Source of the DNA: a virus
DNA length: 52,407 nt
UHGV virus genome: UHGV-0113213
Direction: 5' to 3' (one strand)
A model generated the notes under the pieces. It saw only the letters and a program-made list of their open reading frames with translations, did not search any database and was not told the DNA's origin. Position 1 is the stretch's first letter; every line of letters starts with the position of its first letter. Below are positions 14,535 through 43,158 of the stretch, one piece after another. The position numbers and the translations under genes are program-made.

Positions 14535-14547
14535 GTTTAGTTACCTC

Positions 14548-14934
14548 TTATCTGGATATTATGGTTTGAAAAGCTACGGTAAAAATAAAGCGCCCTTCTC
14601 TCGTCTGCATTGCGGGAATAGCGCCAACTGGCTTCATGTGTGTAATTTTATCAGTTTTATACTCGGTTATCATACTTTGACGTATTGCGTCGGCGAGGTC
14701 TTCCACTTCACTAATATTTGCATCGTTACGCGCTGAAATAACCAGGATGCGAAAATAGTCACGGGTTATCGCCTCTTCTCCCGCCGCGCCGCCGTTTTGC
14801 TGTATGACAATATATCTGCTGTTATTCGAATTGGATCGCTCATTCCAGAAACGGGCCTGCAAAATATAACCTTCGTCGTACCCGTGGGATTTAATCCAAT
14901 CCCTTATTTCGTCGTAAACCTCGCTGCGTTTCAT
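14548..14934 (-). CDS. tail terminator / tail completion protein
   Basis: Position. Confidence 0.4.
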   Translation of the reverse strand: MKRSEVYDEIRDWIKSHGYDEGYILQARFWNERSNSNNSRYIVIQQNGGAAGEEAITRDYFRILVISARNDANISEVEDLADAIRQSMITEYKTDKITHMKPVGAIPAMQTREGRFIFTVAFQTIISR

Positions 14935-15371
14935 GTCTTGTAACCTTCTATAATCGTTTTATAAATATCGTCTGCGTTATCTGGTTCCTCGAATGCTTTG
15001 CGCAAAAATTCAGGCTCCGCGTTCGGATCCCAGTAATTACCCTTACCAGTACCGCCGCCAAATTCGACGCCTTCTCTGGTTTTACCGAAATGTTCGCGCG
15101 GCTGGCCTTTTAATGTGCCCGGCATGTCATGCACCCATTCAGCGTAGCGGGCGGTATAACCCAGACGTAATTGCATACCCTCAGGAGTGTCACCTATATA
15201 CTGGAATTGACTGTTAATTAAAAAACCAGTATCGATCGGCGTCATATTTGCAGCAAATCCACCAGCAACAAGCCCCACTCGCCATAATACATCGTGCGTT
15301 TTTCTGTCTGTAATTTCCTTTAGCTCCTGCTTCAATCGCTCCCTGACGCGTTTAACGCCCTTAATAGGCAT
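14931..15371 (-). CDS. HK97 gp10-like head-tail joining protein
   Basis: N-terminus MPIKGVKRVRERLKQ is typical of the gp10 family. Confidence 0.5.
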   Translation of the reverse strand: MPIKGVKRVRERLKQELKEITDRKTHDVLWRVGLVAGGFAANMTPIDTGFLINSQFQYIGDTPEGMQLRLGYTARYAEWVHDMPGTLKGQPREHFGKTREGVEFGGGTGKGNYWDPNAEPEFLRKAFEEPDNADDIYKTIIEGYKT

Positions 15372-15373
15372 AA

Positions 15374-15763
15374 TTAACCCCCTGTTACGATCTTATAATC
15401 CGGCGTGTCGTTAAACATGCTCATGTCCCATTCAACGATTCCGGTTATAAAGTTGGCCCCAGCCGCCAGCGGGTCGGAAATAGCAGTAGTGTCACCAGTG
15501 GCAAGCATCCATCCTTTTTCAGGGAGCTGCACTGGCTGCATCTTGTGAAGCAGTTCGGTATATACGGTTATCGTGTTGCTAACCTCATTCCCGTTTGCGT
15601 CTGTTGCGGTTCCGTCAGTACGCTCCCATGCACAATCTACCAGGTATGGCGCACCGTATACGTCGGAGTTTGTCCAGTCGTCACGCGTTACGGGGTAAAT
15701 GGTGGCTAATGCCTTGTAACTGAATCTCGCGATCTTACTCATAGCCATAGCTCCATTTAACAA
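15374..15763 (-). CDS. head-tail adaptor protein
   Basis: Position. Confidence 0.35.
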   Translation of the reverse strand: MLNGAMAMSKIARFSYKALATIYPVTRDDWTNSDVYGAPYLVDCAWERTDGTATDANGNEVSNTITVYTELLHKMQPVQLPEKGWMLATGDTTAISDPLAAGANFITGIVEWDMSMFNDTPDYKIVTGG

Positions 15764-15920
15764 TTTTCGGATGGGTTTTCGCCACGCGCGGGCAAAGAAT
15801 TACCCATTCGCCAGCATCATTGAGGTAGGCGGCTACCTGTCGCCCGGTGTCTGTCTTCACCCATACGCGGGTAAACAGTTTCGGCAATAACGGATCCGGT
15901 AATGTCAGGTCGTTCCACAT
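15735..15920 (-). CDS. hypothetical 61 aa protein
   Basis: ORF in the structural operon. Confidence 0.3.
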   Translation of the reverse strand: MWNDLTLPDPLLPKLFTRVWVKTDTGRQVAAYLNDAGEWVILCPRVAKTHPKIVKWSYGYE

Positions 15921-19145: not shown

Positions 19146-20077
19146 TCTTCGCCATATTTAGCGTGCGCAACTTTATAGTTTTCTTGCGCCCGATCTAATA
19201 TTCGTTCGTTTAATATGTTACCGTCTTCGTCAACTAATACGGTAATCGTGCTACATTTGCAGTTAATTGAATTAGGGGATCTACTCCACCATTCGCGCTG
19301 CTCATCTATGGTGTATGTTTTACCGTGCCGCTGCGCGTGCGATAGCCTGGTAGTCGGTGATAATGCCGAAATGTGCATTTGCATAGTGCGCAGATTAAAT
19401 TCTTCTGTCGCCGCTTCTGCCTCATCCATACGCGCTGTGCGTAACGCTGTGCATATTTCAGTTCGAGCAATACGTTTACACCTGTATAGCGGTAATTGCG
19501 TCTCCTGATTCAATGTGCGCGCTATTTCCAGTGGGTTTAAACCACGGGCCATGCCTTCAGTTAATCGCCGGGCCATATCCTTTTTGATCTGTGCGGTCAG
19601 CCCGCGCATTTCCTCAAATACACGGGTACGGACCAGAGCAAGGCGTGTTCGGTAAGTTGTACTGGATAACACGGCAGATACATCGGGATAAACGCTTGAG
19701 TACGTGACAGACTGGTTAGCAAGGTTGGCGTATTCCTGTGCCGTGCCTCGCAGATACGCGACCTTCACGTATTCCTGCCAGAACCAAAAACTTTCCGGGT
19801 CGGTTAGCTCGAATATCTCATCAATCATGTCGCTGGCGTCCTCCAGCATGTCGTGCAATTCATCCATGTAAATCTGGAAGGTATATTTCTTATTAACAGC
19901 CAGGCTATATTGTATTTTGTCCAGTATGGCGATATATGGATCGGCTACTTTTTTCAGGCAGGATTTGAAACGCTTAATAGCGCCAGACCTCAACCTCCCT
20001 GTCATGGTCGGGTCTTCGGTGTTAGATGGCATTATCGCGGCTGGAGGTATTCGCCTGATTATTTTCTTCACCTTCAT
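19136..20077 (-). CDS. head morphogenesis protein (SPP1 gp7 / Mu F-like)
   Basis: Lies downstream of the portal gene. Confidence 0.5.
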   Translation of the reverse strand: MKVKKIIRRIPPAAIMPSNTEDPTMTGRLRSGAIKRFKSCLKKVADPYIAILDKIQYSLAVNKKYTFQIYMDELHDMLEDASDMIDEIFELTDPESFWFWQEYVKVAYLRGTAQEYANLANQSVTYSSVYPDVSAVLSSTTYRTRLALVRTRVFEEMRGLTAQIKKDMARRLTEGMARGLNPLEIARTLNQETQLPLYRCKRIARTEICTALRTARMDEAEAATEEFNLRTMQMHISALSPTTRLSHAQRHGKTYTIDEQREWWSRSPNSINCKCSTITVLVDEDGNILNERILDRAQENYKVAHAKYGEDWE

Positions 20078-21416
20078 TGTCGTTTTCCTCGTCGTCCAGT
20101 TCTACTTCCTGCGTTGGCCCTTCATACCCGGCAGCCTCGCGGATCTCGTCACCGTCGAATACTTGTTCACCTGTGGCGAGACATGCCTGATTGATTTGCG
20201 CCATTTTGTATGCCGCGTCGAGTAGCTCGGCTTTCGTCATGGCGTTAAGGTCGTCCCACAGTACCGACACGTCGACTGGCATACTGATAAGGCGGAGATC
20301 TGCCATCTTGCGGAATAGTTCCTCAAGCTCGCCTCCTATTTCCTCCCGGCGGGTCATACAGCGGTTATTGAAGTAGCGGAGGTCTTCGGTTGATGCACGC
20401 TCACCCTGCTGATTCCCAACCAGGATACGCGTTGGAATGTCGATACCAGCGGCGGCGGTTTGCAGGTTGACGTCATAGGTAGCTGATGGATCCGCCACGG
20501 CAGTAACCAGCGGGCTAACGGTAGCTCCCTGTAATGCCATCATCACATCATTCCCTTTGTTTATATCCTCTGCCGCTTCATTGAATTTTTCGCGCAGCTC
20601 TGTAACGTCGCAACCGTATGTCGCAGCCAGGGAACGGAAATCAATCTCTTTGTCGAATGAGATAGCTAGTTGACGCGCTGCGTTTTTCAGAAAGGATTCA
20701 CCGCTACCGCCTTCCACTTTCTCCAGCGATACAAAAGCGTTATAGGACGGCTCAAGGAAAGCGATGGCATCATCAGAATAATCACCGAAGATAAATATGC
20801 GATCTGGATGTATCTTTCTTGCTATGGTCTTACTGTTAATGCGCTCCTTGTATTCCCACCATGTCGGCAGGCCATAGCTTTCACTTTCCGGATCTTCTTC
20901 GAAGTCCTTCGGTGTAAGAGCACCAGCCCATACAGGGGTAAATTTGGCAATGCCTACACCTTTCGTCACTGGCTGATCCCACGGCTGGTTATCCCTGACG
21001 TGAATTAACAGGCCAGCATAACGACCAATGAGGCGGCGGCGATCGCATTCAGCTATGACGCGCCAGAAACGATTATCAAATCGTTTTTTGATTTCTCTTT
21101 CCCACGGCGTTTCCTTTTTTGCTTTCTCGTCTTCCGTACCTTCGATCAGCGTTGGCCTGGTGCGCCAGCACGTAGTGATGATCTTCTCAATAGCACCGTG
21201 AGCGATACCACCGCGACGATACAGTTTGTATAAATCGGCATAGGTGATTTCTTCTTTGAATCCGTATTCACTCCACGCAGCATCACGCTTTGCATCAATA
21301 CCCATTGAGAAAGGATGCGCGGCGGCATAGCGTGCAAAGGCCGCCTGACGTTGTGACAAGGCAGCATTAACCGCCAATTCTAAATTGGATGGCATAATGT
21401 TTACTCCTGAATGCAT
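20022..21416 (-). CDS. portal protein
   Basis: 464 aa; lies downstream of TerL. Confidence 0.55.
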   Translation of the reverse strand: MHSGVNIMPSNLELAVNAALSQRQAAFARYAAAHPFSMGIDAKRDAAWSEYGFKEEITYADLYKLYRRGGIAHGAIEKIITTCWRTRPTLIEGTEDEKAKKETPWEREIKKRFDNRFWRVIAECDRRRLIGRYAGLLIHVRDNQPWDQPVTKGVGIAKFTPVWAGALTPKDFEEDPESESYGLPTWWEYKERINSKTIARKIHPDRIFIFGDYSDDAIAFLEPSYNAFVSLEKVEGGSGESFLKNAARQLAISFDKEIDFRSLAATYGCDVTELREKFNEAAEDINKGNDVMMALQGATVSPLVTAVADPSATYDVNLQTAAAGIDIPTRILVGNQQGERASTEDLRYFNNRCMTRREEIGGELEELFRKMADLRLISMPVDVSVLWDDLNAMTKAELLDAAYKMAQINQACLATGEQVFDGDEIREAAGYEGPTQEVELDDEENDNEGEENNQANTSSRDNAI

Positions 21417-25526: not shown

Positions 25527-26015
25527 TTATTCTTTACGCAAGCACTGCGTTTTGATGTAGTCCTGTAGGCCAGTGATCTGTGCGTCTTTTATTTTTAGTT
25601 GTTCTCTGAGGGATAGATAAGCCGATTTAGCGTCGGCAGTAGGTTCGCAGGTGGCTCCATCAATGCGGCTGGAGGTTCCGGTATTACTGTCTGTTCGCAT
25701 TGGCACGGCGTTGACGCGCAACCGGATAGTACCGTTATCAATGCCAGTGCGCAGATCGGCAATGTCAGATCTGATAGCTTTAATCTCATCGTGATACCTC
25801 TTATCAAGTTTTGACAGTTCGGCGTTTCGCTCCTTCATCTGCTGAATAGTGTTACTTGCTGTCTTCAGTGCGCCTTTCGTCACCGTGACTTCTTCCTGTA
25901 ACCTTGTCGCCTCACCCTGGTAATAACACGTTACGGCGGTTAGTCCGGCAATAATGCAAACAACAGCGGCGATAATTAACGCCTTCACCTTGTCCACGTT
26001 TCCCCCCATTCGCAA
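25527..26015 (-). CDS. Rz: i-spanin Rz
   Basis: N-terminal TM, coiled coil; follows the endolysin gene. Confidence 0.7.
25595..25789 (-). CDS. Rz1: o-spanin Rz1 (embedded in the Rz +1 frame)
   Basis: Lipobox LSGC; proline-rich. Confidence 0.65.
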   Translation of the reverse strand: MRLKLSDLTLPICALALITVLSGCASTPCQCEQTVIPEPPAALMEPPANLLPTLNRLIYPSENN

Positions 26016-26476
26016 ACGGCATATTCAACATCTCGGCGGTTTACCAGGCCTTGCCACTTCTTACCACCAGCGTATACCCAGCGTTTAAGCTGTGCGCACG
26101 CCTCTGATTTCTTACCGTCATTGAGTAGCTTTAATAAGGTTGATGTTTTGAAGTTGGTTGCGCCTACGTTATAGGCGAATGAATAAAGCGCAGCGCGGGT
26201 AAAATCTGATATTTCGACTTTGATATATGGGTTAATCGCTTTTGCGGTTTTGTGGAGATCTTTGTTTAACAAAGTATCGCATTCTGATTGCGTGTAAGTC
26301 TTACCAAGCATGATGTCTTTTCCGGTGTGACCATAGCAAACAGTCCATACACCGATAACATCACGATAAGGATCGTACTCCACGCCCTCTAATGGTTTAA
26401 CCATCACAGCCGCAATAGCGATCGCCCCACCAGCCGCCGCAGCAATAATTTTATTCTTCAGCGATTGGCTAATCAT
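25985..26476 (-). CDS. R: SAR endolysin (phage 21 R-like lysozyme)
   Basis: [21 protein letters not shown]...YSFAYNVGA is near-identical to R21. N-terminal SAR domain rich in G and A. Confidence 0.85.
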
Positions 26477-26477
26477 G

Positions 26478-26678
26478 TTACTTATTCCCCATTCGCGCGT
26501 CGTGTTCCTCTTGCGCTCGCTTGTTCTCCTGTGATTTGAAGTAATAGTTAACGGCAAATGTGCCTATGGTTGATAAGATACCCACAAAGACAGCAATATC
26601 ATTAATGGTTATCGCGCCGAAAAAAGCAGTTACGGCCCCGGTCACATACGCGCACGCCTCCCGTATTCTGTCGAACAT
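26478..26678 (-). CDS. S: holin (S21 pinholin-like, 2 TMD)
   Basis: 66 aa, two TMDs, charged C-terminus; ATGA overlap with the endolysin. Confidence 0.7.
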
Positions 26679-26691
26679 AGATTTTCCTCCA

Positions 26692-26720
26692 ACAAAGCAA
26701 AAACCCGGCTCGTGGCCGGG
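26692..26720 (-). terminator. tR-prime-like terminator upstream of holin
   Basis: CCCGGCCACGAGCCGGG hairpin followed by TTTTTGCTTTGTT on the minus strand. Confidence 0.6.
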
Positions 26721-26783
26721 TAATTACAATTTCGCATTGTTAGGAAATATTTTAATCTATTTGTTTTTTATGCGCGATTATGG

Positions 26784-26966
26784 CTACAAATCACTAACTT
26801 TCACCAAATCGCCATTATCAAGCCAGATTTTAATTGTTTCTCGCGTCGTCTTGATGATTGGCGCTACCCACTCACCATCGCTAACGCAAACGCGAATATC
26901 ACCACCCTCTATGCGATAAAACATCTTGTCGATTAGTGTTACGGCGTATATACCATCTTCAATCAT
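26784..26966 (-). CDS. hypothetical 60 aa protein
   Basis: ORF in a tightly packed minus-strand operon. Confidence 0.35.
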   Translation of the reverse strand: MIEDGIYAVTLIDKMFYRIEGGDIRVCVSDGEWVAPIIKTTRETIKIWLDNGDLVKVSDL

Positions 26967-27157
26967 TTCTTGCGCTCCTTAATAACCCTTTTGATCTGCG
27001 CGCGCGCGGCATCTACGAGAGCAATAAACACCGCTACAGGCCAGAAAGGAATCTCAAGACCACCACGATCGAGATCATTAGATTTGATAAAACAAGACAT
27101 CAGGATAGCGCCAGCAATATAAAGGAGAAACACAGCAATGATAAGACATTCAATCAT
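26963..27157 (-). CDS. small membrane protein (64 aa)
   Basis: TM helix. Confidence 0.4.
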   Translation of the reverse strand: MIECLIIAVFLLYIAGAILMSCFIKSNDLDRGGLEIPFWPVAVFIALVDAARAQIKRVIKERKK

Positions 27158-27292
27158 CCTCTTTCTCCCCGCCTAAATATTGATATATTTCTTCAGCATT
27201 TTCCCCGCGCTCAAAACAATAATGTTCAAACATGCGCCAATTTTCACTAAGAAACATAACAATAAAATTGTTAACGTATTCGTCATCCATAG
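27155..27292 (-). CDS. hypothetical acidic 45 aa protein
   Basis: ATGA coupling. Confidence 0.3.
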
Positions 27293-27604
27293 TTAATCAT
27301 CCTCTTCATCATCTTCTTGTTCAGCCAGGAAATCATCTACGGCACGGTAAGTAACTGGAGGGATATATTCGAAGTCATCCGTATCAAGATCGAGCGTCCG
27401 GCTGTCGCCGTCGTCGTCCAGCGTATTCATCCCTAATTCACCGAAAGGGCCGTACCCAATGTGGCCCAGGTATTCGCAACCAATCGTAAACCCAGGGTAT
27501 TCGCCTTTACACCGGATTTTGTAAGGTTTATTTGATGCGCTCAATTTCCGACCCTCCACTTTCTGCTTTAGTGATTTTGTATTCTGCCGCCAGTTCAGCG
27601 CCAA
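27293..27604 (-). CDS. hypothetical protein, acidic C-terminus (start uncertain; overlaps upstream ORF)
   Basis: ORF. Confidence 0.3.
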   Translation of the reverse strand: MALNWRQNTKSLKQKVEGRKLSASNKPYKIRCKGEYPGFTIGCEYLGHIGYGPFGELGMNTLDDDGDSRTLDLDTDDFEYIPPVTYRAVDDFLAEQEDDEEDD

Positions 27605-27851
27605 GCAATTCCACTTCCATATTAGCGATACCCTGGAACATCAGATAGGCAAAAACTAGGCTTTTAATTCTATCCGGGTCTTCAAGATGGTCTGCATTAA
27701 AAGGCGGTTCCGATACGTGGAAGCATTTAACATGCGCATCGTCTTCAGTGGCTACACAGAAACATGCGCCAGGTTGCCCGGCGAATTCCCCCAATCTTTC
27801 TTCGTTCGGTAAAGTACCACGGAAAACTTTAACGCTGATAAATTTAGTCAT
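27528..27851 (-). CDS. hypothetical protein
   Basis: ORF. Confidence 0.35.
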   Translation of the reverse strand: MTKFISVKVFRGTLPNEERLGEFAGQPGACFCVATEDDAHVKCFHVSEPPFNADHLEDPDRIKSLVFAYLMFQGIANMEVELLGAELAAEYKITKAESGGSEIERIK

Positions 27852-27854
27852 TGT

Positions 27855-28136
27855 TTATTCTCCTTCGTAAAGAGTTGCCACCAGTTCGGCATCTGTTAGC
27901 GTGTTATAATCTGTATAAAACCCGCAACGCATAAGTGAAGAAAGGCCAGCCACTTTGCACCACATAGGGGTCGATTCGCTCAAATATTCATTCTCCCTTT
28001 TTTCGCTGTATTCCAGTTCATAAAACCGACTATTGTTAACAACCTCAATTACACGGCTGTATGTGCCATCAAGCCTACTAACTCCGCGCCATAGTCTGAT
28101 CACAACCATAATTTCTACTCCGTTTGATGGGGCCAT
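27855..28136 (-). CDS. hypothetical protein
   Basis: ORF. Confidence 0.35.
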   Translation of the reverse strand: MAPSNGVEIMVVIRLWRGVSRLDGTYSRVIEVVNNSRFYELEYSEKRENEYLSESTPMWCKVAGLSSLMRCGFYTDYNTLTDAELVATLYEGE

Positions 28137-28148
28137 TCTGCCCCGTGT

Positions 28149-28289
28149 TTATTCTTCTTCTCCTCCTCTAAATCCTAAGCACTCCGCGTATTCGTCAATG
28201 CTTAATGCTTCTTCACCTGGTGCCAATACTTCAAAGTAGCGGGCGTATAGTTCGAAAACCCAGGCCGGATATTTAGCGTTAGCGTTCAT
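28149..28289 (-). CDS. hypothetical acidic 46 aa protein
   Basis: RBS AGGGGGAA. Confidence 0.35.
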   Translation of the reverse strand: MNANAKYPAWVFELYARYFEVLAPGEEALSIDEYAECLGFRGGEEE

Positions 28290-28298
28290 GGTTCCCCC

Positions 28299-28577
28299 TT
28301 ATGCCATGCGTGCAAATTCAAGTGATTTGCATTCGTAGTCTTCCTCTGCCTGTTCGATGACTGCCATCATCATTTCGTTTGCGTTGTTGAATGCGTTGCT
28401 TTGTGCGAACTTGTCGGCTCCACCTTCTTCTTCGAACTCCGCGTTGTTTGCTGCAATGTAGTGATATTCGATGTTGTTCAGGTAAGGGCTTGCAGCGTGT
28501 GCTGGGTCTTCTTTCTCCACCATCTCCCAAAATGCGTTTAAGCGAGATTCGACTTCTTTGTTAATCCAGCGTTTCAT
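28299..28577 (-). CDS. hypothetical protein
   Basis: Preceded by a promoter-like site. Confidence 0.4.
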   Translation of the reverse strand: MKRWINKEVESRLNAFWEMVEKEDPAHAASPYLNNIEYHYIAANNAEFEEEGGADKFAQSNAFNNANEMMMAVIEQAEEDYECKSLEFARMA

Positions 28578-28612
28578 TTTTCTACCCTCCGCATCGTTCT
28601 CTCTTCAGCTTC

Positions 28613-28674
28613 TTTATAACAAAATGGCACTGCCGAAACAATGCCATTTCGTAAACCTTGTGATACAGATCACA
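28613..28674 (-). promoter_or_regulatory. promoter TTGTTT-N17-TATAAA overlapping motif CCATTTTGTTATAAA; perfect CRP-like site TGTGATACAGATCACA at 28659-28674
   Basis: Read directly from the sequence. Confidence 0.5.
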
Positions 28675-28675
28675 T

Positions 28676-28903
28676 TTACGTTTCTTCCGTAAAAGTAACC
28701 TTCATCGCCCCATCCGAACTACGGACAACATAACGACCAATACCGCCTAGCGGCCCTGCATACCATAAGTGACCGTAAGTGTCAGTCACGACGATAAACG
28801 GAAATTTAGGAGACAATCCCATCGGTTTTTCAGCCGTGTACTGTGCTCCTTCCTCAAAACAACCTAATCCCGATTCGTTACACGTTAAAATCATTTTATG
28901 CAC
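28676..28903 (-). CDS. paralog family protein P4 (C..S..CF..G..Y... GxxW[YF])
   Basis: Shares a motif with the next three genes. Confidence 0.45.
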   Translation of the reverse strand: MHKMILTCNESGLGCFEEGAQYTAEKPMGLSPKFPFIVVTDTYGHLWYAGPLGGIGRYVVRSSDGAMKVTFTEET

Positions 28904-29135
28904 CTACATACGAAAACGCAGCAAAAGCACCACCACAAGCCCGCGCATAAACAAGCGCAGTTCCACATCCCATCTTATAAAATCGCCATAACTGGCCCTG
29001 GTCGTCAGTAATGGCGTGAATATATTCCTGATCCTTTGCGTCAAACAATGCCGCTCCGACTTCGTAGATCTTGCCATTCTTAAAAAACGCGCTGCATCGT
29101 GAGTATGTGCACTGGTATCTCTGATTCTGTCTCAT
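28896..29135 (-). CDS. paralog family protein P3
   Basis: See P4 (28676-28903). Confidence 0.45.
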   Translation of the reverse strand: MRQNQRYQCTYSRCSAFFKNGKIYEVGAALFDAKDQEYIHAITDDQGQLWRFYKMGCGTALVYARACGGAFAAFSYVGA

Positions 29136-29144
29136 AACACTACC

Positions 29145-29360
29145 TCACCACTTAACAAAACGCGCGATCGGTTCCGTACTGAACTGGCTGGCAACGTGTC
29201 CACGCGCGTAACAATCCCAATAGCGCCACGCGTCTCCGTGGTCGTCTTTAATGTATTGGGTGTTAAGTTCATCACCAGTCAGGTGAGCTACGGTATATAT
29301 TCCGCCAACCTCAAAGCATGATGATTTTGATTCAGTGCATCTAACATACATGATATTCAT
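29145..29360 (-). CDS. paralog family protein P2
   Basis: See P4 (28676-28903). Confidence 0.45.
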   Translation of the reverse strand: MNIMYVRCTESKSSCFEVGGIYTVAHLTGDELNTQYIKDDHGDAWRYWDCYARGHVASQFSTEPIARFVKW

Positions 29361-29581
29361 TCCTTATTTGCATTTATAAATAGCGCAACTGGCACACCAT
29401 TACCGCCAACGCCATCAACGAATCCGCTACCATTGAGATCGTTATAAAAAAACCACGGATCGCCATCTTCATCATAAATGTACTGAATATCGTTAGTTCT
29501 GCTTATTAGCGTTTCTATGTCGTAAATCTCATCAACCACAAAAAGATTAGGGAAACGAGACTTTATACATTTTACAAACAT
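29357..29581 (-). CDS. paralog family protein P1
   Basis: See P4 (28676-28903). Confidence 0.45.
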   Translation of the reverse strand: MFVKCIKSRFPNLFVVDEIYDIETLISRTNDIQYIYDEDGDPWFFYNDLNGSGFVDGVGGNGVPVALFINANKE

Positions 29582-29832
29582 CAGAAAACCCCTTTATAAT
29601 CGACCGTGTATTTTACCACCAATTTCCACTCGCTATAGTTTTCCATGTCGCGCGGCTGCCAGCCTTTCATGCCTACAGCACTACGCGCAGCGTGGCGGCG
29701 ATAATCGTCATTAAGATCGGCAATGCACCACGGTTGAAGGAAGAACATATAATTCGCTTCGTTAACCAGAATAGCCATCATCCGTCCAGTGGCCTTATCT
29801 TTCGCCCTGAAATAACTTACCTTGATTTTCAT
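29581..29832 (-). CDS. hypothetical protein
   Basis: ORF. Confidence 0.35.
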   Translation of the reverse strand: MKIKVSYFRAKDKATGRMMAILVNEANYMFFLQPWCIADLNDDYRRHAARSAVGMKGWQPRDMENYSEWKLVVKYTVDYKGVF

Positions 29833-30044
29833 TTTAATACCTCGTCGATCAGCATTTCTTCTTCCAGGTTAGCCGGACGTTTACGGAATATCCCGGCAAA
29901 AACCAGGTCATCAAGTAGGTCTTTGCGTTTAAATAGCCACTCTTTCATTATTACCCCGTCATCGCTGCGATATACGACGCCGTTTTTCAAAAAATAAAAA
30001 GTGCTGGTATTTGTTTGAAGGTATAAATCTTCGTAAACGTCCAT
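29829..30044 (-). CDS. hypothetical protein
   Basis: ORF. Confidence 0.35.
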   Translation of the reverse strand: MDVYEDLYLQTNTSTFYFLKNGVVYRSDDGVIMKEWLFKRKDLLDDLVFAGIFRKRPANLEEEMLIDEVLK

Positions 30045-30048
30045 GATA

Positions 30049-30276
30049 TTAACCCTCGACTACTTGCAAGCCGCGCCCCTTATCGCCTACGAAGTCGCCC
30101 AGGCTAAACGTATATGACCACGCCGGGTTAATGTAGTAATCATCAGCACCGTGAGCGATAAGGTCTTTACCCAAAATGACGCAGGTCACATCATCAGAAT
30201 GAACAACGTCTACCGTTTCCCCTACCACGCGTTTTAATGATGGGTAGCCGTGATCGTGCAAGAATTTAACTTTCAT
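30049..30276 (-). CDS. hypothetical protein
   Basis: ORF. Confidence 0.35.
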   Translation of the reverse strand: MKVKFLHDHGYPSLKRVVGETVDVVHSDDVTCVILGKDLIAHGADDYYINPAWSYTFSLGDFVGDKGRGLQVVEG

Positions 30277-30560
30277 ATTTCTTTCCCTTTATAAGTAACA
30301 GCATCAGCGATCAACAATACCGCCAGCAATTCACCGTCATGTAACGGGTCTGGAATAGCAAAAAATATGTCGCTGTTTTTGTCCGGCACTACTACGCGCA
30401 TATTTCCCTGTTTGTCTTCATGCACGAACCACGGCTTTTCGTGTGGCTCAAACATGCCGAAAAGTAATTTAAGATCTATTTCTTCACCCTTCGTGAATAA
30501 CGACACATCAGTTGTAGTGATAACTAACGCTTTCTGATCTGCTGTTTTCTTCGCTCTCAT
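30273..30560 (-). CDS. hypothetical protein
   Basis: ORF. Confidence 0.35.
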   Translation of the reverse strand: MRAKKTADQKALVITTTDVSLFTKGEEIDLKLLFGMFEPHEKPWFVHEDKQGNMRVVVPDKNSDIFFAIPDPLHDGELLAVLLIADAVTYKGKEI

Positions 30561-30835
30561 TCCTCTGTCTCCCAGCGGTCTATGCTGATTAAAAAGTCCC
30601 GGATAGCGTGTCGCTCGTCGCGCGTCGGTTTACGCTTCCGGTAAATTTTGAAATCGAACCATTCTTTTTCTTGTTCGAAGTCCAGATCGTAAGCAAGCGC
30701 CTCGATATATCCGCAGTCGTGATACTGGTAAGCCACGCCAGCACGAACAAAAAAGCGGGTTTTATCCCGCTTGTGTTCATAGATACACATATTTGCCCCA
30801 CTATGCAGTTGTGTAACTATCAACCAGCTTTTCAT
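30557..30835 (-). CDS. hypothetical protein
   Basis: ORF. Confidence 0.35.
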   Translation of the reverse strand: MKSWLIVTQLHSGANMCIYEHKRDKTRFFVRAGVAYQYHDCGYIEALAYDLDFEQEKEWFDFKIYRKRKPTRDERHAIRDFLISIDRWETEE

Positions 30836-31031
30836 CCTTCATTCTGGAAAGCTGCATGATATTCATCGTGTAGCCGTTGTCAGAGAAAAGCCACTCCGCA
30901 GCCTTGCGACGAAAAACAATATCATCATGGTTACGTGTCCATGTAGCTATCACAACGCGTTTCCCGTTAGTGGCGAACATAGATAACGCGTTATCAACTA
31001 CGTCGATAGCCTGCCAGATTTTTAGTTCCAT
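30801..31031 (-). CDS. hypothetical protein
   Basis: ORF. Confidence 0.3.
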   Translation of the reverse strand: MELKIWQAIDVVDNALSMFATNGKRVVIATWTRNHDDIVFRRKAAEWLFSDNGYTMNIMQLSRMKDEKLVDSYTTA

Positions 31032-31387
31032 GATTTATCTCCGTAGATTTTGAATAGTTCACACGCTTCCTGATTTTCAAGTATATTCATATGCAGGTCA
31101 CGCAGGCGGCGCATTGTGCGGAATCGCGGTCTGAACTCCTGGCTACGTTTAATGTATTTGCCGCCAATTGAATAAATATGCCCGTATGCGTACCATCTGT
31201 TGCCTACCCATATATCATATTCTTTTCCTTCGTAATTAAATTTTATAGTTAGCTCGCCTACTTCAACTATTAACCCTTTATCAATGATGTCATTAAGCAT
31301 TTCGTCCCATTCTTTGAGGAATGGTTGCTGATAAAAACCAAAAAGCGTATTTGCAGCATGGCAAAGATAATCAATGATTATTTGCAT
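31022..31387 (-). CDS. hypothetical protein
   Basis: ORF. Confidence 0.35.
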   Translation of the reverse strand: MQIIIDYLCHAANTLFGFYQQPFLKEWDEMLNDIIDKGLIVEVGELTIKFNYEGKEYDIWVGNRWYAYGHIYSIGGKYIKRSQEFRPRFRTMRRLRDLHMNILENQEACELFKIYGDKSWN

Positions 31388-31391
31388 ATTA

Positions 31392-31628
31392 TCACCACAT
31401 CATGTAATAAACGTTCTCGTCAGCTAATGCGTCCGCTACATCCTGCGTCATGTGCCTGACTTCAAGGAAAAAATCCTCATCATGCCATTCACTAACAAGC
31501 ATACGCGCCCATTTACGGCGGCGGCGCTTATTGTGTCGTAGATCATCAAAAGTCATTAATGCTTTGTCATATGCCCTTACAAGGCGTTTACGGTTACTTT
31601 TCATTGCTCGACCCACCTTAACATCCAA
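31392..31628 (-). CDS. hypothetical basic protein
   Basis: ORF. Confidence 0.35.
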   Translation of the reverse strand: MDVKVGRAMKSNRKRLVRAYDKALMTFDDLRHNKRRRRKWARMLVSEWHDEDFFLEVRHMTQDVADALADENVYYMMW

Positions 31629-31912
31629 TTCACATCACATTTAATTGCGAATACTCTCACCGGATCAGTGCCGAATAATGGATGTGTGATAGTTTTCACT
31701 TCGTACCCAAAATAAGGAAGGTTAATAATCCTGTGTTTTTCGTGGTTGGCAGGGTATCCCCATTTAATAATCAGGCGCTCATATTCCCGCCCTTCCAGAC
31801 GTTTACGCCAATAGTCATTATAAAGCCGGTATTCCTCCACCTTCTTTCCCGCCCGGATAGCGTGGAAATATTCCCCTTTCAGATTCAAATGCAGGTCTTT
31901 ACTTGCCATCGC
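31601..31912 (-). CDS. ASCH/DUF3850-like protein
   Basis: DLHLNLKGEYFHAIRAGKKVEEYRL resembles the ASCH N-terminal motif. Confidence 0.4.
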   Translation of the reverse strand, partial: AMASKDLHLNLKGEYFHAIRAGKKVEEYRLYNDYWRKRLEGREYERLIIKWGYPANHEKHRIINLPYFGYEVKTITHPLFGTDPVRVFAIKCDVNWMLRWVEQ

Positions 31913-32081
31913 TATGATCCTGTAAACAGTCGTTATAGCCTTCAATATATCCGGTTAATCCGGTATTACTCACTGACCATTCAGCCGAACGGCGTTTGAT
32001 GGCCTTGTCCATCGTCATTTCATCGCCTGGTCCGCCTGGCTCAATGTATTTTCTTAAATCCCTTACTATCCACGCCATCAA
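31899..32081 (-). CDS. hypothetical protein
   Basis: ORF. Confidence 0.3.
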   Translation of the reverse strand: MMAWIVRDLRKYIEPGGPGDEMTMDKAIKRRSAEWSVSNTGLTGYIEGYNDCLQDHSDGK

Positions 32082-32156
32082 TGATGCGTATCACTGCACA
32101 CACGCGCCGTTAATGTCAGGTCATTGACCAGCTTTGCAAATAGATGTTCTTTTAAT

Positions 32157-32504
32157 TTAGGCTTCATTGTCGTCACCTTCGAAATACTGCTCAATCGCAC
32201 GTTTGACGTTCATTTCTCGCTGATAATTGTTACCGCTATAGATTGCGGCTGCCGATACGTGATCGATAATTTGCTGTAATAAATAAGGATGAATTTTTAT
32301 TTTTTCATCAAGGACAATGCGAGATGGCTTAGGTGCTGTAGCAATATCATCAACGATTTCTATCTCACCACCTCCGCCGCAGCGAGGACAAACGAATTTA
32401 TCACCTTGATACAGCATGATGCCGCAACCTTTTTCGGTTTTTACGACCATGCCATCGTCGTCGCAGTTTTCGCAATACAGCCACCGAATATTAATTATTT
32501 TCAT
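32157..32504 (-). CDS. zinc-ribbon protein (CxxC...CxxC)
   Basis: CENC...CPRC. Confidence 0.35.
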   Translation of the reverse strand: MKIINIRWLYCENCDDDGMVVKTEKGCGIMLYQGDKFVCPRCGGGGEIEIVDDIATAPKPSRIVLDEKIKIHPYLLQQIIDHVSAAAIYSGNNYQREMNVKRAIEQYFEGDDNEA

Positions 32505-32694
32505 TGTCGTTACTCCGTCCGTAAATATGGACAGGCTCAACTGGTACTGCTGGCAATTCGCCATCATTTAACTCGCTCGCCATGCCTAATATTAAACGCG
32601 CTTCAGCACCAGTGACTTTCTTGCACCATGCGTCGCCTGTTTTATCTTCAAATAAGATAACGGCAAACTGATCGTTTATTTCCAGCTTATCCAT
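32491..32694 (-). CDS. hypothetical protein
   Basis: TAATG coupling to Q. Confidence 0.35.
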   Translation of the reverse strand: MDKLEINDQFAVILFEDKTGDAWCKKVTGAEARLILGMASELNDGELPAVPVEPVHIYGRSNDNENN

Positions 32695-33422
32695 TATTCA
32701 CCCCGTGTCACTCGTTTGATTTCGCTTTCCGCGCGAGATTCTTCTTTGAATAGCTCCGCTATGGCGTCTTCATAGAAAACCCTGTATTTCTTCCACCATG
32801 TTGATCTGCTTACCGGGAAAACAAGCTGGTTAACAGCCTGCCGGACGAGATCTACAGGGAAACGCGAGTACCCGCGCCCGCCGCAGTGCTGGCACGTTTT
32901 GAATACTGGCATTTCCGCCGCTTCGCTGGCTGCTTTATCCGGTACTTCGCCACGCCCCTTGCACCTCTGGCAATGGTTTTTAACGTAGCCTTTGCCGTTG
33001 CACCGCGAGCAAACTGTCGATGTGTATTCACAATATGGATTCGGTAAAAGCCCGTTACCTCCGCACTTAGGGCAAACCTTTTCGGTAGCCGCACTTTGGC
33101 AGTAATCCCGAAACGCGAAAACGGCAACAAGAATAATAAGATCATTGCGTTGTTCTTCATTTAATTCCATCACGTATTCGTAATCTTTCGCCATAACCCT
33201 TAAACGCTCTGTAAGCAAAATTACGGCCCTGTGTTTTTCAGCTTGCGATAGCTCCATTTTCCCTAAAAAAGCACTATAGCCAAGCTCTACGCGCGATTGC
33301 GCCATACCAGCGGCGGTAAGCGCATCCGTCGTATTAAGTGCATCCGGGGATGTTCCCCGGCTTTCGTCTGATAATCGCGGTGATTTGGGAAAGTGGAATT
33401 TCAGAATGGATTCTAAATTCAT
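32694..33422 (-). CDS. Q: late antiterminator Q (lambda Q family)
   Basis: MNLESILKFHFPKSPRLSDESRGTSPDAL...AAGMAQS matches the lambda Q N-terminus; Cys4 zinc site. Confidence 0.85.
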   Translation of the reverse strand: MNLESILKFHFPKSPRLSDESRGTSPDALNTTDALTAAGMAQSRVELGYSAFLGKMELSQAEKHRAVILLTERLRVMAKDYEYVMELNEEQRNDLIILVAVFAFRDYCQSAATEKVCPKCGGNGLLPNPYCEYTSTVCSRCNGKGYVKNHCQRCKGRGEVPDKAASEAAEMPVFKTCQHCGGRGYSRFPVDLVRQAVNQLVFPVSRSTWWKKYRVFYEDAIAELFKEESRAESEIKRVTRGE

Positions 33423-41719: not shown

Positions 41720-42010
41720 TTAATGGTAGCGGACTTTATCCAGGGGTTTTTCCCCTAAATGGCGTGGTTGCGTTGCGTGGTAGTAGCTGCCGCTTTCATT
41801 TTCCGTATACCATTTTACTGATCCTTTGCGACGTTCTTTAATGCTATTTGGTTTGCATCTTTCCTCGTTTGCAAATCGAATAGCTTTATCCACATTGTCT
41901 GTTTTATTGATTGCAGGTGATGATTTTCTTTCGTTTTCTCTTTTTATCCTTCTGCGTTCCCTGGCATTCATTTTGCTATCACATTTACCATATATAATTG
42001 TAACGCTCAT
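41720..42010 (-). CDS. N: N-like antitermination protein
   Basis: Arginine-rich motif NARERRRIKRENERK; first gene downstream of the pL candidate and a nutL-like boxA. Confidence 0.55.
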   Translation of the reverse strand: MSVTIIYGKCDSKMNARERRRIKRENERKSSPAINKTDNVDKAIRFANEERCKPNSIKERRKGSVKWYTENESGSYYHATQPRHLGEKPLDKVRYH

Positions 42011-42510: not shown

Positions 42511-43158
42511 TTATGGCAGGTTTACGATCTTCGCATCAACCACCACGCCTATAATTTTTGATTCTGGATTCATAGGGATTGGCGGATACAGCGGATTGAG
42601 CGAACGTAAAAGCCTTTGACCTCCATCAATAATCAACTGTTTAAACGTCGGTATCTGCCCTTCCTCAAGCTGGGCTATAACCAGTTTGCCGTCAATAGCT
42701 GGCGCGTGCGGGTCCACAAGTATCATCGTCCCCGCCGGGATGCTCAACCCCTGCGGCGCGTTCATTGATTCACCTTTGGCAACCAGCCAGTAACTGTCAT
42801 CTGAACAAATAACGCTAGTCGTAACGTGTCGTAATGCTGAACGCCTTGCGTCATCCATATTGTTTACTGTGTCCTTCCAGTCAATAACCGGGTAACTACC
42901 TAAATCACGCGGCGGCACGGCCTGAAGTGTATTAGAAACAGAATCATCAATGACCATGCCATCATGTGTAACAGTAAACTGCCGACGACCAAGCTCGCGC
43001 ATAATCCGCGCAATATCTTCAAGATTTGGCTCTCGGCGACCGTTCAGCCAGTGTGACAGGCCGCCTTTAGTTATCCCCATACGATCCGCGAGTGAATCCT
43101 GGCTCATGCCCTGCGCCCGCATGAGCTGCTTTGCTAAGTCATACCATTTTGTTTTCAT
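42511..43158 (-). CDS. cI: CI-like repressor (HTH_XRE + S24 LexA-like peptidase)
   Basis: N-terminal HTH (QDSLADRMGITKGGLSHWLNG); C-terminal SMN...G and K dyad consistent with the S24 family. Confidence 0.8.
   Translation of the reverse strand: MKTKWYDLAKQLMRAQGMSQDSLADRMGITKGGLSHWLNGRREPNLEDIARIMRELGRRQFTVTHDGMVIDDSVSNTLQAVPPRDLGSYPVIDWKDTVNNMDDARRSALRHVTTSVICSDDSYWLVAKGESMNAPQGLSIPAGTMILVDPHAPAIDGKLVIAQLEEGQIPTFKQLIIDGGQRLLRSLNPLYPPIPMNPESKIIGVVVDAKIVNLP

Follow-up and report, generated by a model that had tools for sequence, protein, structure and literature searches.

Twenty-four small genes lie between the Q antiterminator gene and a candidate late promoter in an mEpimmI-group coliphage

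In six lambda-Q-family phages outside the mEpimmI group, the DNA directly after Q has the same layout, namely a -10 hexamer, 5-7 nt, (T)AAC(G/A)NT and a terminator. The sequence after Q is TAAATT tgactc AACGAT in lambda, TATCAT aaccct AACAGT AGAAAT in ST104, TAATAT cgtttct AACAGT AGAAAT in ES18, TAACGATGGG in Proteus Brookers and Klebsiella phi5.1, and TAACACTAGAAAT in Erwinia 59. In Stx phages, the stx genes are located downstream of PR' and tR'. Herein, we analysed the virus genome UHGV-0113213 (the whole stretch of 52,407 nucleotides is termed the window), which comes from a temperate phage of the previously described mEpimmI (mEp021-like) group of coliphages. The corresponding sequence of this phage, cctAACAATgcGAAAT, was found before the holin gene rather than after Q.

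The Q gene of the initial annotation, together with its TAATG overlap with the next gene, was confirmed by PF03589, phmmer and the sequence itself. The 242-aa ORF matched Pfam PF03589 at 108.7 bits (cut-off, 26.7; 1.7e-31) and PHROG 127 at 3.7e-79, and PF00684 (DnaJ_CXXCXGXG) was also matched. The phmmer alignment with lambda Q (PDB 7UBM; 3e-37) covered both halves, with query residues 1-113 and 150-240 aligned to lambda residues 1-113 and 117-207, respectively, and the zinc-ribbon arm holds a 36-aa insertion with two additional CxxCxGxG motifs. The ORF is a genuine member of the lambda Q family as defined previously (PMC9388147), N-terminal segment and zinc-ribbon arm included. Q is under selection, since its identity was 85-96% across all relatives holding the region. 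TAATG or TGATG occurs at the junction of Q and the next gene in every relative examined, and the retention of this stop/start overlap means that there is no non-coding DNA directly 3' of Q.

Downstream of Q, we counted 24 tightly packed small genes on the same strand (Table 1), in line with the initial estimate of about 24, and neighbouring genes overlap at 14 of the 23 internal junctions. The products are indeed small (46-121 aa; median, 76.5); the upper value of the 45-140 aa proposed earlier had come from long alternative starts. The start of the block, previously set at 27155, left out g02 and g01, with which the block ends, and the block reaches 26784. The full interval from the Q stop to holin is 6015 bp, as expected from the approximately 6 kb given between Q and the lysis cassette, and contains only two non-coding gaps longer than 12 bp, one of 98 bp (28578-28675) and one of 105 bp (26679-26783). 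Given that 22 of the 24 genes matched PHROG families and all 24 have homologues in related phages, the block does not reflect chance ORF density. Among 20 related genomes with both Q and the terminator element, the Q-to-terminator distance varied from 1927 bp (mEp021, 8 genes) to 6725 bp, and the presence and identity of the block genes were mosaic, indicating that this is a hypervariable accessory site, as had been suspected.

Table 1. Positions of Q, the small genes, candidate regulatory elements and lysis genes in the window.
Feature	Position	Strand	Basis or remarks
Q antiterminator, lambda family, 242 aa	32694-33422	minus	profile and phmmer matches
Q stop/g24 start overlap TAATG	32694-32698	minus	sequence reading, ggtgaaTAATGg
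24 small genes, g24 to g01	26784-32694	minus, same strand as Q	gene count; one (g22) frameshifted
g24, 67 aa	32491-32694	minus	phrog_35000 at 2.8e-40
g23, 115 aa, small CxxC...CxxCGGGG zinc-finger protein	32157-32504	minus	weak PF00684 match
g22, homologue of a 273-bp gene, broken by a 1-nt deletion near 32082-32083	31899-32170	minus	
g21, 102 aa, ASCH-like protein	31601-31909	minus	phrog_625 at 4.5e-36; weak PF04266 ASCH
g20, 70 aa, basic	31392-31604	minus	phrog_8758 at 4.3e-26
g19, 121 aa	31022-31387	minus	phrog_16975 at 5.8e-61
g18, 76 aa	30801-31031	minus	phrog_38280 at 6e-52; in 8/9 annotated loci
g17, 77 aa	30557-30790	minus	phrog_30442; in 8/9 annotated loci
Intrinsic-terminator-like hairpin and T6 within g17, AAGCGGG-ataaaa-CCCGCTT-TTTTGTT	30735-30775	minus	terminator scan
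g16, 95 aa, variable	30273-30560	minus	phrog_33175 at 1.5e-65; in 3/9 annotated loci
g15, 75 aa	30049-30276	minus	phrog_5009 at 1.5e-31; in 8/9 annotated loci
g14, 71 aa	29829-30044	minus	in 9/9 annotated loci
g13, 83 aa	29581-29832	minus	phrog_38609 at 5e-60; in 9/9 annotated loci
g12, g11, g10, g09 (74, 71, 79, 75 aa), four tandem paralogues	28676-29581	minus	
Hairpin AAATGGCA-12 nt-TGCCATTT then TGTTAT, in the 98-bp gap	28621-28648	minus	sequence reading
g08, 92 aa, acidic	28299-28577	minus	phrog_7287 at 1e-37
g07, 46 aa	28149-28289	minus	phrog_22232 at 2.9e-34
g06, 93 aa	27855-28136	minus	phrog_32200 at 1.9e-55
g05, 107 aa	27528-27851	minus	phrog_23107 at 9.5e-63
g04, 83 aa, acidic C-terminal tail, start codon uncertain	27293-27544	minus	phrog_25234, full length, 3.5e-56
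g03, 46 aa	27150-27290	minus	phrog_15754 at 8e-24
g02, 64 aa, hydrophobic	26963-27157	minus	phrog_10061 at 1.4e-24
g01, 60 aa, last small gene	26784-26966	minus	phrog_15318 at 2.3e-28
Alternative or additional promoter-like site GTGAAA-16-CATAAT	26777-26804	minus	promoter scan
Candidate late promoter core	26736-26766	minus	sequence reading and group conservation
Spacer AAACAAATAGAT, conserved, candidate Q-binding region	26766-26755	minus	
-10 TAAAAT	26754-26749	minus	then 7 nt (atttcct)
-10-like AACAAT, candidate sigma70-dependent pause element, ~+1 to +6	26741-26736	minus	
Intrinsic terminator, tR'-like, ACCCGGC-cacga-GCCGGGT and T-run	26692-26721	minus	terminator scan
Holin, HP1 family, first gene past the terminator	26478-26678	minus	PF16080 at 1.8e-14; phrog_20 holin
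Endolysin	25985-26476	minus	synteny and annotation in MagusPhagus and mEp021
Rz-like i-spanin	25527-26009	minus	annotation of relatives

The individual genes differ in their distribution. g24 is missing from mEp021 and mEp044, and g18 comes directly after Q in mEp021; the 348-bp g23 gene was found in MagusPhagus and mEp010 only among the nine annotated loci. Both halves of g22 matched phrog_29262 (profile positions 1-28 and 31-89), and the deletion is visible in the DNA alignment with MagusPhagus and MLI107; g22 is either a pseudogene or a sequence error. In 933W, the g21 homologues carry the label 'ASCH domain-containing protein' and are encoded next to the ea-type accessory genes, close to the left end of the record. 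For g19, 45 homologues were found in E. coli and Salmonella, the Salmonella homologue being situated in the early operon of a P2-like prophage, and a fold search with the AF2 model (pLDDT 81) gave no informative match. The phrog_30442 match begins at Met16 of the long g17 ORF. Membership of g04 in the g09-g12 family was not demonstrable by hhalign. g02, which also weakly matches a 'membrane protein' moron PHROG, is by its sequence probably a membrane protein, and relatives carry one or two paralogues at the g01 position. g14 shares 93% identity with mEp021 by tblastn and is apparently homologous to mEp021 gp41, which is annotated as 'virion structural protein'. This mEp021 homologue was found in virions by mass spectrometry, and previous work on the mEpimmI group described a structural-protein gene that is conserved and mislocated, lying upstream of the lysis region (PMC11893012).

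The initial annotation placed a tR'-like terminator at 26692-26720 before holin, which stands as a strong hairpin and T-run at 26721-26692, and did not locate the late promoter. Judging from the sequence, the 105-bp gap beside this terminator is the most likely site of the missing promoter, and the candidate core there probably represents it. The core occurs once in the window (0 expected), whereas the motif TANNNT-N6-7-AACRRT alone is not rare (4 versus 4.5 expected). The element was present in each of the 47 genomes gathered for the group, namely 9 annotated loci plus 38 from IMG/VR. The IMG/VR loci were picked by a pattern spanning only 26757-26730, inside the element, and are therefore not independent evidence for the 28-base conservation. 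The element was found in 35 E. coli genomes and 7 phages located by similarity, was present even in prophages with a holin just 57% identical, and did not co-vary with the 240-aa versus 242-aa Q alleles. Homology to many relatives starts about 12 bp upstream of TAAAAT, within the spacer; the Q-binding element of lambda lies in the corresponding spacer. The -35 position for TAAAAT is TCGCGC in this window and TTGTAG, TTGTGG or TTGTAT in most relatives, so the promoter may be weak here, or the upstream CATAAT may be used. GTGAAA-16-CATAAT is specific to the 'variant A' upstream sequence carried by this window; CATAAT is common to 13 of the 47 genomes, and its -35 lies in non-conserved coding DNA. 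The leader RNA at the terminator folds at -25.3 kcal/mol (z = -4.2), and the stem is nearly invariant among relatives, with changes concentrated in the loop. The equivalent terminator is annotated TERM_5 in mEp021 and presumably corresponds to t5, which is among the experimentally demonstrated terminators of the group (PMC11893012).

It seems improbable that the holin-proximal element is only a terminator and ribosome-binding region, with the late genes expressed by N-like read-through of early transcripts and Q acting elsewhere or being dispensable. An N-modified polymerase would be expected, from lambda N, to pass such a terminator, which counts for this explanation, as does the poor -35 of this window's variant. 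An N-like system with three nut sites has also been documented for the group (PMC11893012). However, the explanation is at odds with the selection on Q in relatives, with sequence conservation that extends well beyond the upstream side of the hairpin and includes the -10 and AACNNT layout typical of the family, and with pR, which is without such a pause element.

A late promoter at the Q stop/g24 start (~32720-32671) would place the whole block in a Q-dependent late transcript, like stx, and the g17, gap and holin-proximal hairpins would be successive terminators ignored by Q-modified polymerase. At 32689 on the minus strand we found the motif GTGACA-16-TAAGCT-7-AACGAT, one of the four TANNNT-N6-7-AACRRT occurrences in the window, in which AACGAT matches the lambda pause element exactly and the -35 agrees with five of six consensus positions; it is present in 15 of 21 distinct junction sequences. 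In most relatives, therefore, a motif occupies the canonical position of the Q cassette and its PR' (PMC9388147), which counts against the model that we prefer, and the virion association of the g14 homologue in mEp021 would likewise suit late expression better. Nevertheless, the motif lies wholly inside coding sequence, its -10 TAAGCT agrees with just three of six consensus positions, and in this window the 1.9 kb that follow it contain no terminator. It is missing in mEp021, a viable and studied phage, and in five relatives with a different gene after Q, and the relatives without it all keep the holin-proximal element. We regard a late promoter at the Q stop as unlikely. The toxin genes of Stx phages lie 3' of PR', whereas here the sole conserved PR'-like cassette lies 3' of the block, before holin; the equivalence with the Stx interval drawn in the initial annotation is probably wrong transcriptionally, and the block appears closer to the lambda nin region than to the stx site.

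Hairpins are also conserved within the block. The g17 hairpin is near-invariant, its 41 nt being 99.3% identical across 29 relatives; in mEp010 the stem has a compensatory G-to-C/C-to-G pair, and in L015 it has a G.U pair. In the hairpin of the 98-bp gap, found in about 29 relatives, the stem is kept and the loop varies whatever genes flank it; the annotations of mEp044 and mEp010 include ARNold terminators at a similar position between small genes, and the gap hairpin is a candidate weak terminator or RNA-processing element. Conserved terminator-like hairpins within the block fit an antitermination-dependent operon. In the lineage of this phage, the 98-bp gap also carries a perfect CRP-type palindrome (TGTGA-N6-TCACA, 28674-28659), followed at approximately the spacing of a class I CRP site by an extended -10, TGTTATAAA. 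The palindrome and extended -10, the hairpin ahead of g08, as at moron boundaries, and the resemblance of g02 to a small membrane protein would suit morons with their own promoters, in which case some or all of the small genes would be expressed from the prophage for the lysogen (superinfection exclusion, defence) rather than for lytic growth. This seems doubtful, because the palindrome is not a conserved feature in most relatives, promoter-like sites in the region are depleted (13 versus 23.8 expected in the promoter scan), the genes overlap or abut like a single operon, their composition is that of the adjoining early genes, and the 10 largest proteins had no PADLOC match. Neither of the other two promoter-like sites within the block is conserved.

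We consider it probable that the block consists of hypervariable accessory genes of the distal early operon, inserted between Q and the site where Q acts. From the observed gene order, strand, packing, Q family, terminator, element conservation and block variability, we infer the transcription start, the pause, Q binding in the spacer and the expression timing. On the minus strand, the proposed order would start with pR (~42387-42359), the N-like gene, and the replication and methylase genes, continue with a nutR2-like site (~34860), ninF, ninG, rusA, Q and g24 to g01, and end with the late promoter, pause element and terminator (26766-26692), holin, endolysin, Rz, and the terminase and virion genes; all genes run the same way as pR and the N-like gene. 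Once modified by the N-like Gp17, RNA polymerase would read past Q, the internal block hairpins and further, and the 24 small genes would thus be made with Q as delayed-early products. Q would work in trans on polymerase started at the promoter just before holin, which would pause at AACAAT and, without Q, terminate at the hairpin some 20-45 nt further on. Since the conserved PR'-like cassette lies downstream of the block, the block most likely belongs to the transcript of the early promoter, extended by N-like antitermination, rather than to the Q-dependent late transcript, and the homologues of g19 and g21 in early regions of other temperate phages count for early expression. By our own reading of the sequence, ninF, ninG and Q are preceded by a boxA/boxB-like site, in agreement with the published nutR2 position (PMC11893012).

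The anti-defence role proposed in the initial annotation is neither supported nor refuted. No match was obtained for any of the 24 block genes in a PDB sequence search, for 23 of the 24 in Pfam, or for the 10 largest proteins in NCBIfam and PADLOC, and in these searches no block protein matched any known anti-defence family. g09-g12 are predicted to form a six-stranded beta-barrel, a rare fold that they would have in common with Bas11 Gp54; this small protein is non-essential and acts as a trigger of the CapRel defence system (PMC11578894). Collectively, the small proteins most likely are made early in infection and modulate the host or its defences, and the separation of Q from its probable late promoter is an unusual arrangement but one typical of the mEpimmI group.

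An 8-kb query around the region matched seven phages of a single group (MagusPhagus, mEp010, mEp013, mEp021, mEp044, mEp515 and mEp554), with 86-89% identity over 39-79% of the query. The gene order is also shared, and the window belongs to this group, mEpimmI; the 86-89% refers to nucleotide identity in the aligned portions. The 2025 description of the group characterises it as Nus-dependent temperate coliphages prevalent in the human gut (PMC11893012). No record identical to the window was found in the collection searched, and the gene content between Q, the late-gene antiterminator gene, and the holin gene is a new mosaic within mEpimmI.

The genes considered here are minus-strand genes and run in the direction shared by nearly all genes from ~42.4 kb down to ~1 kb. 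Between Q and the holin, 24 genes were called on this strand (g24 to g01, hereafter the block), encoding 46-121 aa with a median of 76.5. The initial annotation had described about 24 small genes of 45-140 aa in this interval. The interval is real and 22 of the 24 genes match a PHROG, every family being without assigned function; the genes are indeed small, but their range is narrower than stated, and a start at 27155 leaves out g02 and g01. The internal junctions overlap in 14 of 23 cases, and the whole stretch from Q to the holin holds only two non-coding gaps larger than 12 bp. In g22, a one-base deletion splits the gene, whose halves match the two halves of phrog_29262, so that g22 is either a pseudogene or the product of a sequencing error.

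Positions and sequence features of the Q-to-holin region and its surroundings, with the DNA that follows Q in other phages
Feature	Position in window	Strand	Description
Q	32694-33422	-	242 aa; PF03589, 108.7 bits against a cut-off of 26.7
Q insertion	32977-33084	-	Q residues ~114-149; 36 aa absent from lambda Q
Candidate 3	~32720-32671	-	GTGACA-16-TAAGCT-7-AACGAT
g22 deletion	31899-32170, near 32082-32083	-	by comparison with MagusPhagus and with the MLI107 prophage of E. coli; 273-bp gene becomes two ORFs
Candidate 2	30883-30856	-	CTGACA-16-TATCAT, ~100 nt upstream of the g17 hairpin
g17 hairpin	30775-30735	-	41 nt in coding sequence; AAGCGGG-ataaaa-CCCGCTT followed by T6
98-bp gap	28578-28675		non-coding
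CRP-type palindrome	28659-28674	-	TGTGATCTGTATCACA
Extended -10	28612-28620	-	TGTTATAAA
105-bp gap	26679-26783		non-coding
Candidate 1, proposed promoter core	26766-26736	-	
Terminator	26721-26692	-	terminator scan; ACCCGGC-cacga-GCCGGGT then TTTTGCTTTG; 7-bp GC-rich stem and T-run
Holin	26478-26678	-	
boxA/boxB-like site	~34862-34825	-	TGCTCTTTA ... GCGCTGAAATGCGT
N-like ORF	41720-42010	-	arginine-rich motif
pR	42387-42359	-	TTGACT-17-TATATT
LexA/CI-like repressor gene	42511-43158	-	
Gene after large terminase	20022-21416	-	
Lambda, DNA right after Q			TAAATT-tgactc-AACGAT-GGG
ST104, DNA right after Q			TATCAT-aaccct-AACAGT-AGAAAT
ES18, DNA right after Q			TAATAT-cgtttct-AACAGT-AGAAAT
Proteus phage Brookers and Klebsiella phi5.1, DNA right after Q			...ttcTAACGATGGG
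Erwinia phage 59, DNA right after Q			TATAGT-cctat-AACACT-AGAAAT

The product of Q is a putative antiterminator of the Q-lambda family (PF03589), for which the roles of the segments, including that of the N-terminal segment in antitermination, have been described (PMC9388147). It matched PHROG 127 ("anti-termination protein Q-like") over its full length and lambda Q (PDB 7UBM) at 3e-37, residues 1-113 aligning with lambda 1-113 and residues 150-240 with lambda 117-207, and is homologous to lambda Q in the N-terminal segment and the HTH body. Residues 114-152 of lambda Q form a zinc-ribbon "arm" that contacts DNA (PMC9388147), and the four cysteines of this arm are retained, CQRC...CQHC in the window being aligned with CRDC...CGRC in lambda. 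The 36-aa insertion contributes two extra CxxCxGxG motifs and gives a PF00684 match; the resulting four motifs are predicted to be a DnaJ-like double zinc module. The insertion is located in the arm that, in lambda, contacts the Q-binding element and sigma region 4. Long forms of Q (254-257 aa) also occur in the closest lambdoid relatives, ST104 and ES18.

In the canonical cassette (PMC9388147), PR', a sigma-dependent pause element and a terminator come immediately after the Q gene and lead into the late genes. In the window, the Q gene and the proposed transcription unit lack this direct adjacency. The stop of Q and the next start share the TAATG overlap reported in the initial annotation, and TAATG or TGATG was found at this junction in every relative examined. 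Since the canonical adjacency is missing, three candidate promoter sites were examined, and we propose from the sequence that the late promoter, pause element and terminator lie in the 105-bp gap before the holin (candidate 1). The gap reads AAACAAATAGAT-TAAAAT-atttcct-AACAAT-gcgaaattgtaatt-hairpin, in which, at the sequence level, the pause-like AACAAT starts 7 nt past the -10 TAAAAT. The hairpin bears out the tR'-like terminator that the initial annotation placed before the holin; it is followed by an HP1-family holin, an endolysin and Rz, and in mEp021 it is annotated as TERM_5. TERM_5 is probably the published t5, which the group paper lists among the experimentally demonstrated terminators (PMC11893012). 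Across the relatives, the hairpin stem hardly changes and most differences fall in the loop. The leader has a much lower folding energy than shuffled controls (z = -4.2).

As a putative sigma70 promoter, the element in the window has a good -10 (TAAAAT) and a poor -35. Most relatives carry TTGTAG, TTGTGG or TTGTAT at the -35 position, and the window and 12 other genomes with the same sequence variant carry TCGCGC. This variant also has CATAAT 23 bp upstream of TAAAAT, which yields an alternative promoter-like arrangement, GTGAAA-16-CATAAT. The variant -35 and the upstream CATAAT therefore give two possible start readings in the window phage, both of which place a promoter-proximal -10-like element and a terminator within ~80 bp upstream of the holin.

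The motif -10-N6-7-AACRRT is by itself not rare (4 occurrences in the window against 4.5 expected). The element as a whole was found by similarity in 42 genomes (35 E. coli genomes and seven phages), which include prophages whose holin is only 57% identical. A DNA-level similarity search with the element among lambdoid phages returned only the seven phages of the group. In many relatives, homology begins ~12 bp upstream of TAAAAT, within the spacer. In lambda, the Q-binding element is located in the corresponding spacer. The conserved spacer AAACAAAYRGAT is a candidate Q-binding element by its position; it is not similar to the lambda Q-binding element. Outside the group, (T)AAC(G/A)NT was found at the same place in all six other phages examined that have a Q of this family, and a terminator follows within ~50-80 nt in the five short-leader phages and ~190 nt downstream in lambda. 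The element in the window has the architecture of these six phages and in detail is like the ST104/ES18 type (cTAACAaTgcGAAAT).

The remaining sites were compared with the holin-proximal element. A minor alternative is that the late promoter lies at the Q stop and g24 (candidate 3), where the lambda pause hexamer occurs in the canonical position. However, this site is wholly inside coding sequence, its -10 is weak and no terminator occurs within 1.9 kb downstream; moreover, it is absent from mEp021 and five other relatives with a different gene after Q, all of which keep candidate 1. Candidate 2 was rejected, both of its hexamers being changed in nearly all relatives. Early promoter pR was likewise rejected as a Q-loading site, as no -10-like AACNNT follows its -10.

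If PR' is holin-proximal, as we propose, the 24 genes would be outside the Q-dependent transcript, and the block may be expressed through N-type antitermination from the pR side. The block is co-oriented with pR and with an ORF that has an arginine-rich motif and resembles the N-like protein Gp17. By our reading, a boxA/boxB-like site is present upstream of ninF, ninG, rusA and Q, and its position agrees with that given for nutR2 in the group paper (PMC11893012). The block lies on the same strand as, and downstream of, the nut-like site and the N-like gene, with no strong promoter between; promoter-like sites in the region are rarer than expected (13 against 23.8), and the composition of the block is that of the neighbouring early genes. 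Only one observation speaks against reading the block as early, namely the virion association of a g14 homologue: gp41 of mEp021 is annotated "virion structural protein", and it is probably the conserved, "mislocated" structural protein mentioned in the group paper (PMC11893012).

The LexA/CI-like repressor gene precedes the N-like gene and the early rightward promoter on the same strand. In lambda, the repressor and the early rightward genes are arranged divergently. The arrangement in the window agrees with the published placement of nutL upstream of the repressor gene in mEp021.

Conserved hairpins were also found inside the block. The hairpin segment in g17 is 99.3% identical in 29 relatives, and flanking synonymous sites vary; mEp010 has a compensatory G-to-C/C-to-G pair, and one further genome has a G.U pair. 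The hairpin looks like an intrinsic terminator or attenuator under selection at the RNA or DNA level. It was also considered as a boxB/nut site, but no boxA precedes it and T6 follows it, which makes a terminator more likely. A weaker conserved hairpin is present in the 98-bp gap. Conserved terminator-like hairpins inside the operon fit antitermination-dependent expression, as in lambda nin. The 98-bp gap also contains a perfect CRP-type palindrome, with an extended -10 ~40 nt past it, near class I CRP spacing, before g08. The palindrome occurs in ~9 genomes of this lineage only and is missing from most relatives; because of this restriction, it may be due to chance.

The size and content of the block vary widely in the group. 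Only eight genes separate Q from the holin in mEp021, and about 17-27 do so in the other annotated relatives. A further 38 IMG/VR genomes were collected with a pattern inside the terminator-proximal element, so the 28 bases that make up this pattern are conserved by construction in these loci. In the 20 genomes that have both Q and the element, the two are separated by 1927-6725 bp (5939 bp in the window, measured between the Q stop and the point where the searched core of the element begins). The individual genes are mosaic in presence and identity across nine annotated loci: g13 and g14 occur in all nine and g15, g17 and g18 in eight, and the least widespread genes occur in two. The suggestion of an accessory-gene site is thus upheld by both distance and content. 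In the E. coli MLI107 prophage (L006, 8732-9000), AGCCGTATTTGT, which is normally 3' of the last small gene, is present twice, and between the two copies is an additional ORF-sized segment (~250 bp, unannotated) that immediately precedes the promoter-like element. From this arrangement, the boundary looks like a recombination joint at which cargo is added. At some distance from the block, the gene after the large terminase (14467-15840 in the related locus L005 and 14577-15947 in L006) is annotated as portal in mEp021, but in two related prophages RefSeq names it "anti-CBASS protein Acb1 family protein"; the Acb1 name reflects either a real domain or a naming artefact.

The proteins of the block gave few leads to function. 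Pfam searches of 23 of the 24 genes returned only weak matches to ASCH and to DnaJ-type zinc fingers, NCBIfam and PADLOC searches of the 10 largest small proteins gave no match, and all 24 proteins, concatenated, had no relative among PDB sequences at E <=10. No match to a characterised anti-defence protein was found in PHROG, Pfam or NCBIfam annotation of the scanned proteins or among PDB sequences. A tRNA scan of the window and an Rfam search of the whole window were also negative. Two genes of the block have homologues in the early regions of other temperate phages: a homologue of g19 is located between cox and the replication gene in a P2-like Salmonella prophage, and a homologue of g21 (ASCH-like) lies beside ea-type accessory genes in 933W. 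Runs of Glu/Asp were seen at the C-termini of g03, g04, g06, g07, g09, g17 and g23 (26784-32694), and in several cases the acidic tail coincides with the GGAG or GAGG that serves as Shine-Dalgarno sequence for the gene overlapping it downstream. Given this overlap, the acidity may arise as a side effect of translational coupling and not reflect DNA mimicry.

Four tandem paralogues, g09-g12, form a family of their own (pairwise blastp 2e-4 to 4e-7), and three of the four match phrog_31142. A profile of the family, searched against 1.84 billion representative proteins, found only ~15 small proteins, apparently of the same four subfamilies. Weak matches of the profile to single beta-propeller blades (Reg_prop, NHL) were discounted as motif-level resemblance, and g04 and g14 were not supported by hhalign as additional members. 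Structure searches on predicted models, the route advised at the outset, were productive for g11 and not for g19, whose reasonable model had no informative fold match. The AlphaFold model of g11, built on a 15-sequence alignment, is of good confidence (pLDDT 87.5) and all-beta with six strands. The matches in a Foldseek search of viral models were to many small, uncharacterised proteins from coliphages and from phages infecting related enterobacteria, and the predicted model is a six-stranded beta-barrel with the topology of Gp54(Bas11) (PDB 9AXB). The six-stranded barrel of Gp54(Bas11) is rare; the protein is small and non-essential, and its function is unknown. As a direct trigger, it binds the immunity protein CapRel-SJ46 and activates it, and its authors speculate that it may inhibit another defence (PMC11578894). 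Both Gp54 and g09-g12 are small phage proteins without assigned function, the window differing in its four tandem paralogues. Sequence homology to Gp54 was not detected (10% identity in the structural alignment; no PDB sequence match at E <=10), and the link, drawn from a predicted model, is at the fold level only and does not demonstrate anti-defence activity or CapRel sensitivity. A far-reaching scenario would make the block a fast-evolving counter-defence or decoy island expressed early, together with Q, in which the g09-g12 barrels are diversified CapRel-type sensor binders or decoys, the g17 hairpin is an attenuator metering expression and the Q split is adaptive, keeping large exchangeable cargo under N-type control with the late switch undisturbed; we regard this scenario as unlikely.

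The lambda Q switch is among the closest known systems. Q is homologous over its full length, the proposed target resembles that of lambda in its -10, in a -10-like AACNAT where the transcript would start and in an intrinsic terminator before the lysis genes, and ninG and rusA lie upstream of Q in both. In lambda, however, Q is followed by its target, whereas 1.9-6.7 kb of small genes intervene in the group (6.0 kb in the window); the leader is estimated at ~47 nt against ~194 nt in lambda; lambda Q lacks the 36-aa insertion with its two extra CxxCxGxG motifs in the DNA-binding arm; and, unlike lambda, the window variant has a weak or absent -35. In lambda, the nin region between P and Q carries small delayed-early genes and the internal terminators tR2-tR4. 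Like the block, it is made of small, overlapping genes, is mosaic between relatives and has internal terminators, which are putative in the block. The nin genes are largely dispensable and lie on the N-antiterminated rightward transcript, and both would also hold for the genes of the block. The nin region is upstream of Q and the block downstream, and the block is larger (24 genes) and has genes present in nearly all relatives examined (g13-g15, g17 and g18).

The initial annotation had equated the interval with the Q-to-S interval of Stx phages. In Stx and other lambdoid phages, this site occupies the same place between Q and the holin and takes foreign genes (stx, tRNAs and other morons). 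The stx genes are downstream of PR' and tR' and are Q-dependent. In the window, by contrast, the PR'-like cassette, the only such cassette found throughout the group, would be downstream of the block, which argues against the equivalence, and there are no tRNA genes. The block is a hypervariable accessory site, though probably one that is early and precedes the late promoter, not a late site of the stx type; it appears better compared with a nin-like region displaced to the far side of Q. N15, a linear plasmid-prophage, encodes Q far from its late operon, Q acting in trans at a distant qut; its Q belongs to a different family and its genome is of a different type.

Both the phage group and the variable "regulation cluster" it carries have been published before; the position of the late promoter and the separation of Q from it are not treated in the passages of PMC11893012 searched. 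New here are the proposed position of the late promoter, pause element and terminator; the 1.9-6.7 kb block between Q and its putative target in all 20 group genomes with both; the conserved internal hairpins; and the paralogue family with a predicted Gp54-like fold. If our inference holds, several kb of exchangeable cargo can separate the parts of the textbook Q cassette, and the leader of the target would be very short in this group (~47 nt, estimated). The group would then be a natural test of Q acting in trans. It would also correct an annotation habit: a position between Q and the holin does not by itself make a gene late and Q-dependent, as stx is. With its 24 uncharacterised small phage proteins, the block also offers a compact catalogue of reasonable candidates for functional screens, and one four-member family among them is predicted to have a fold in common with a known trigger of a bacterial immune protein.
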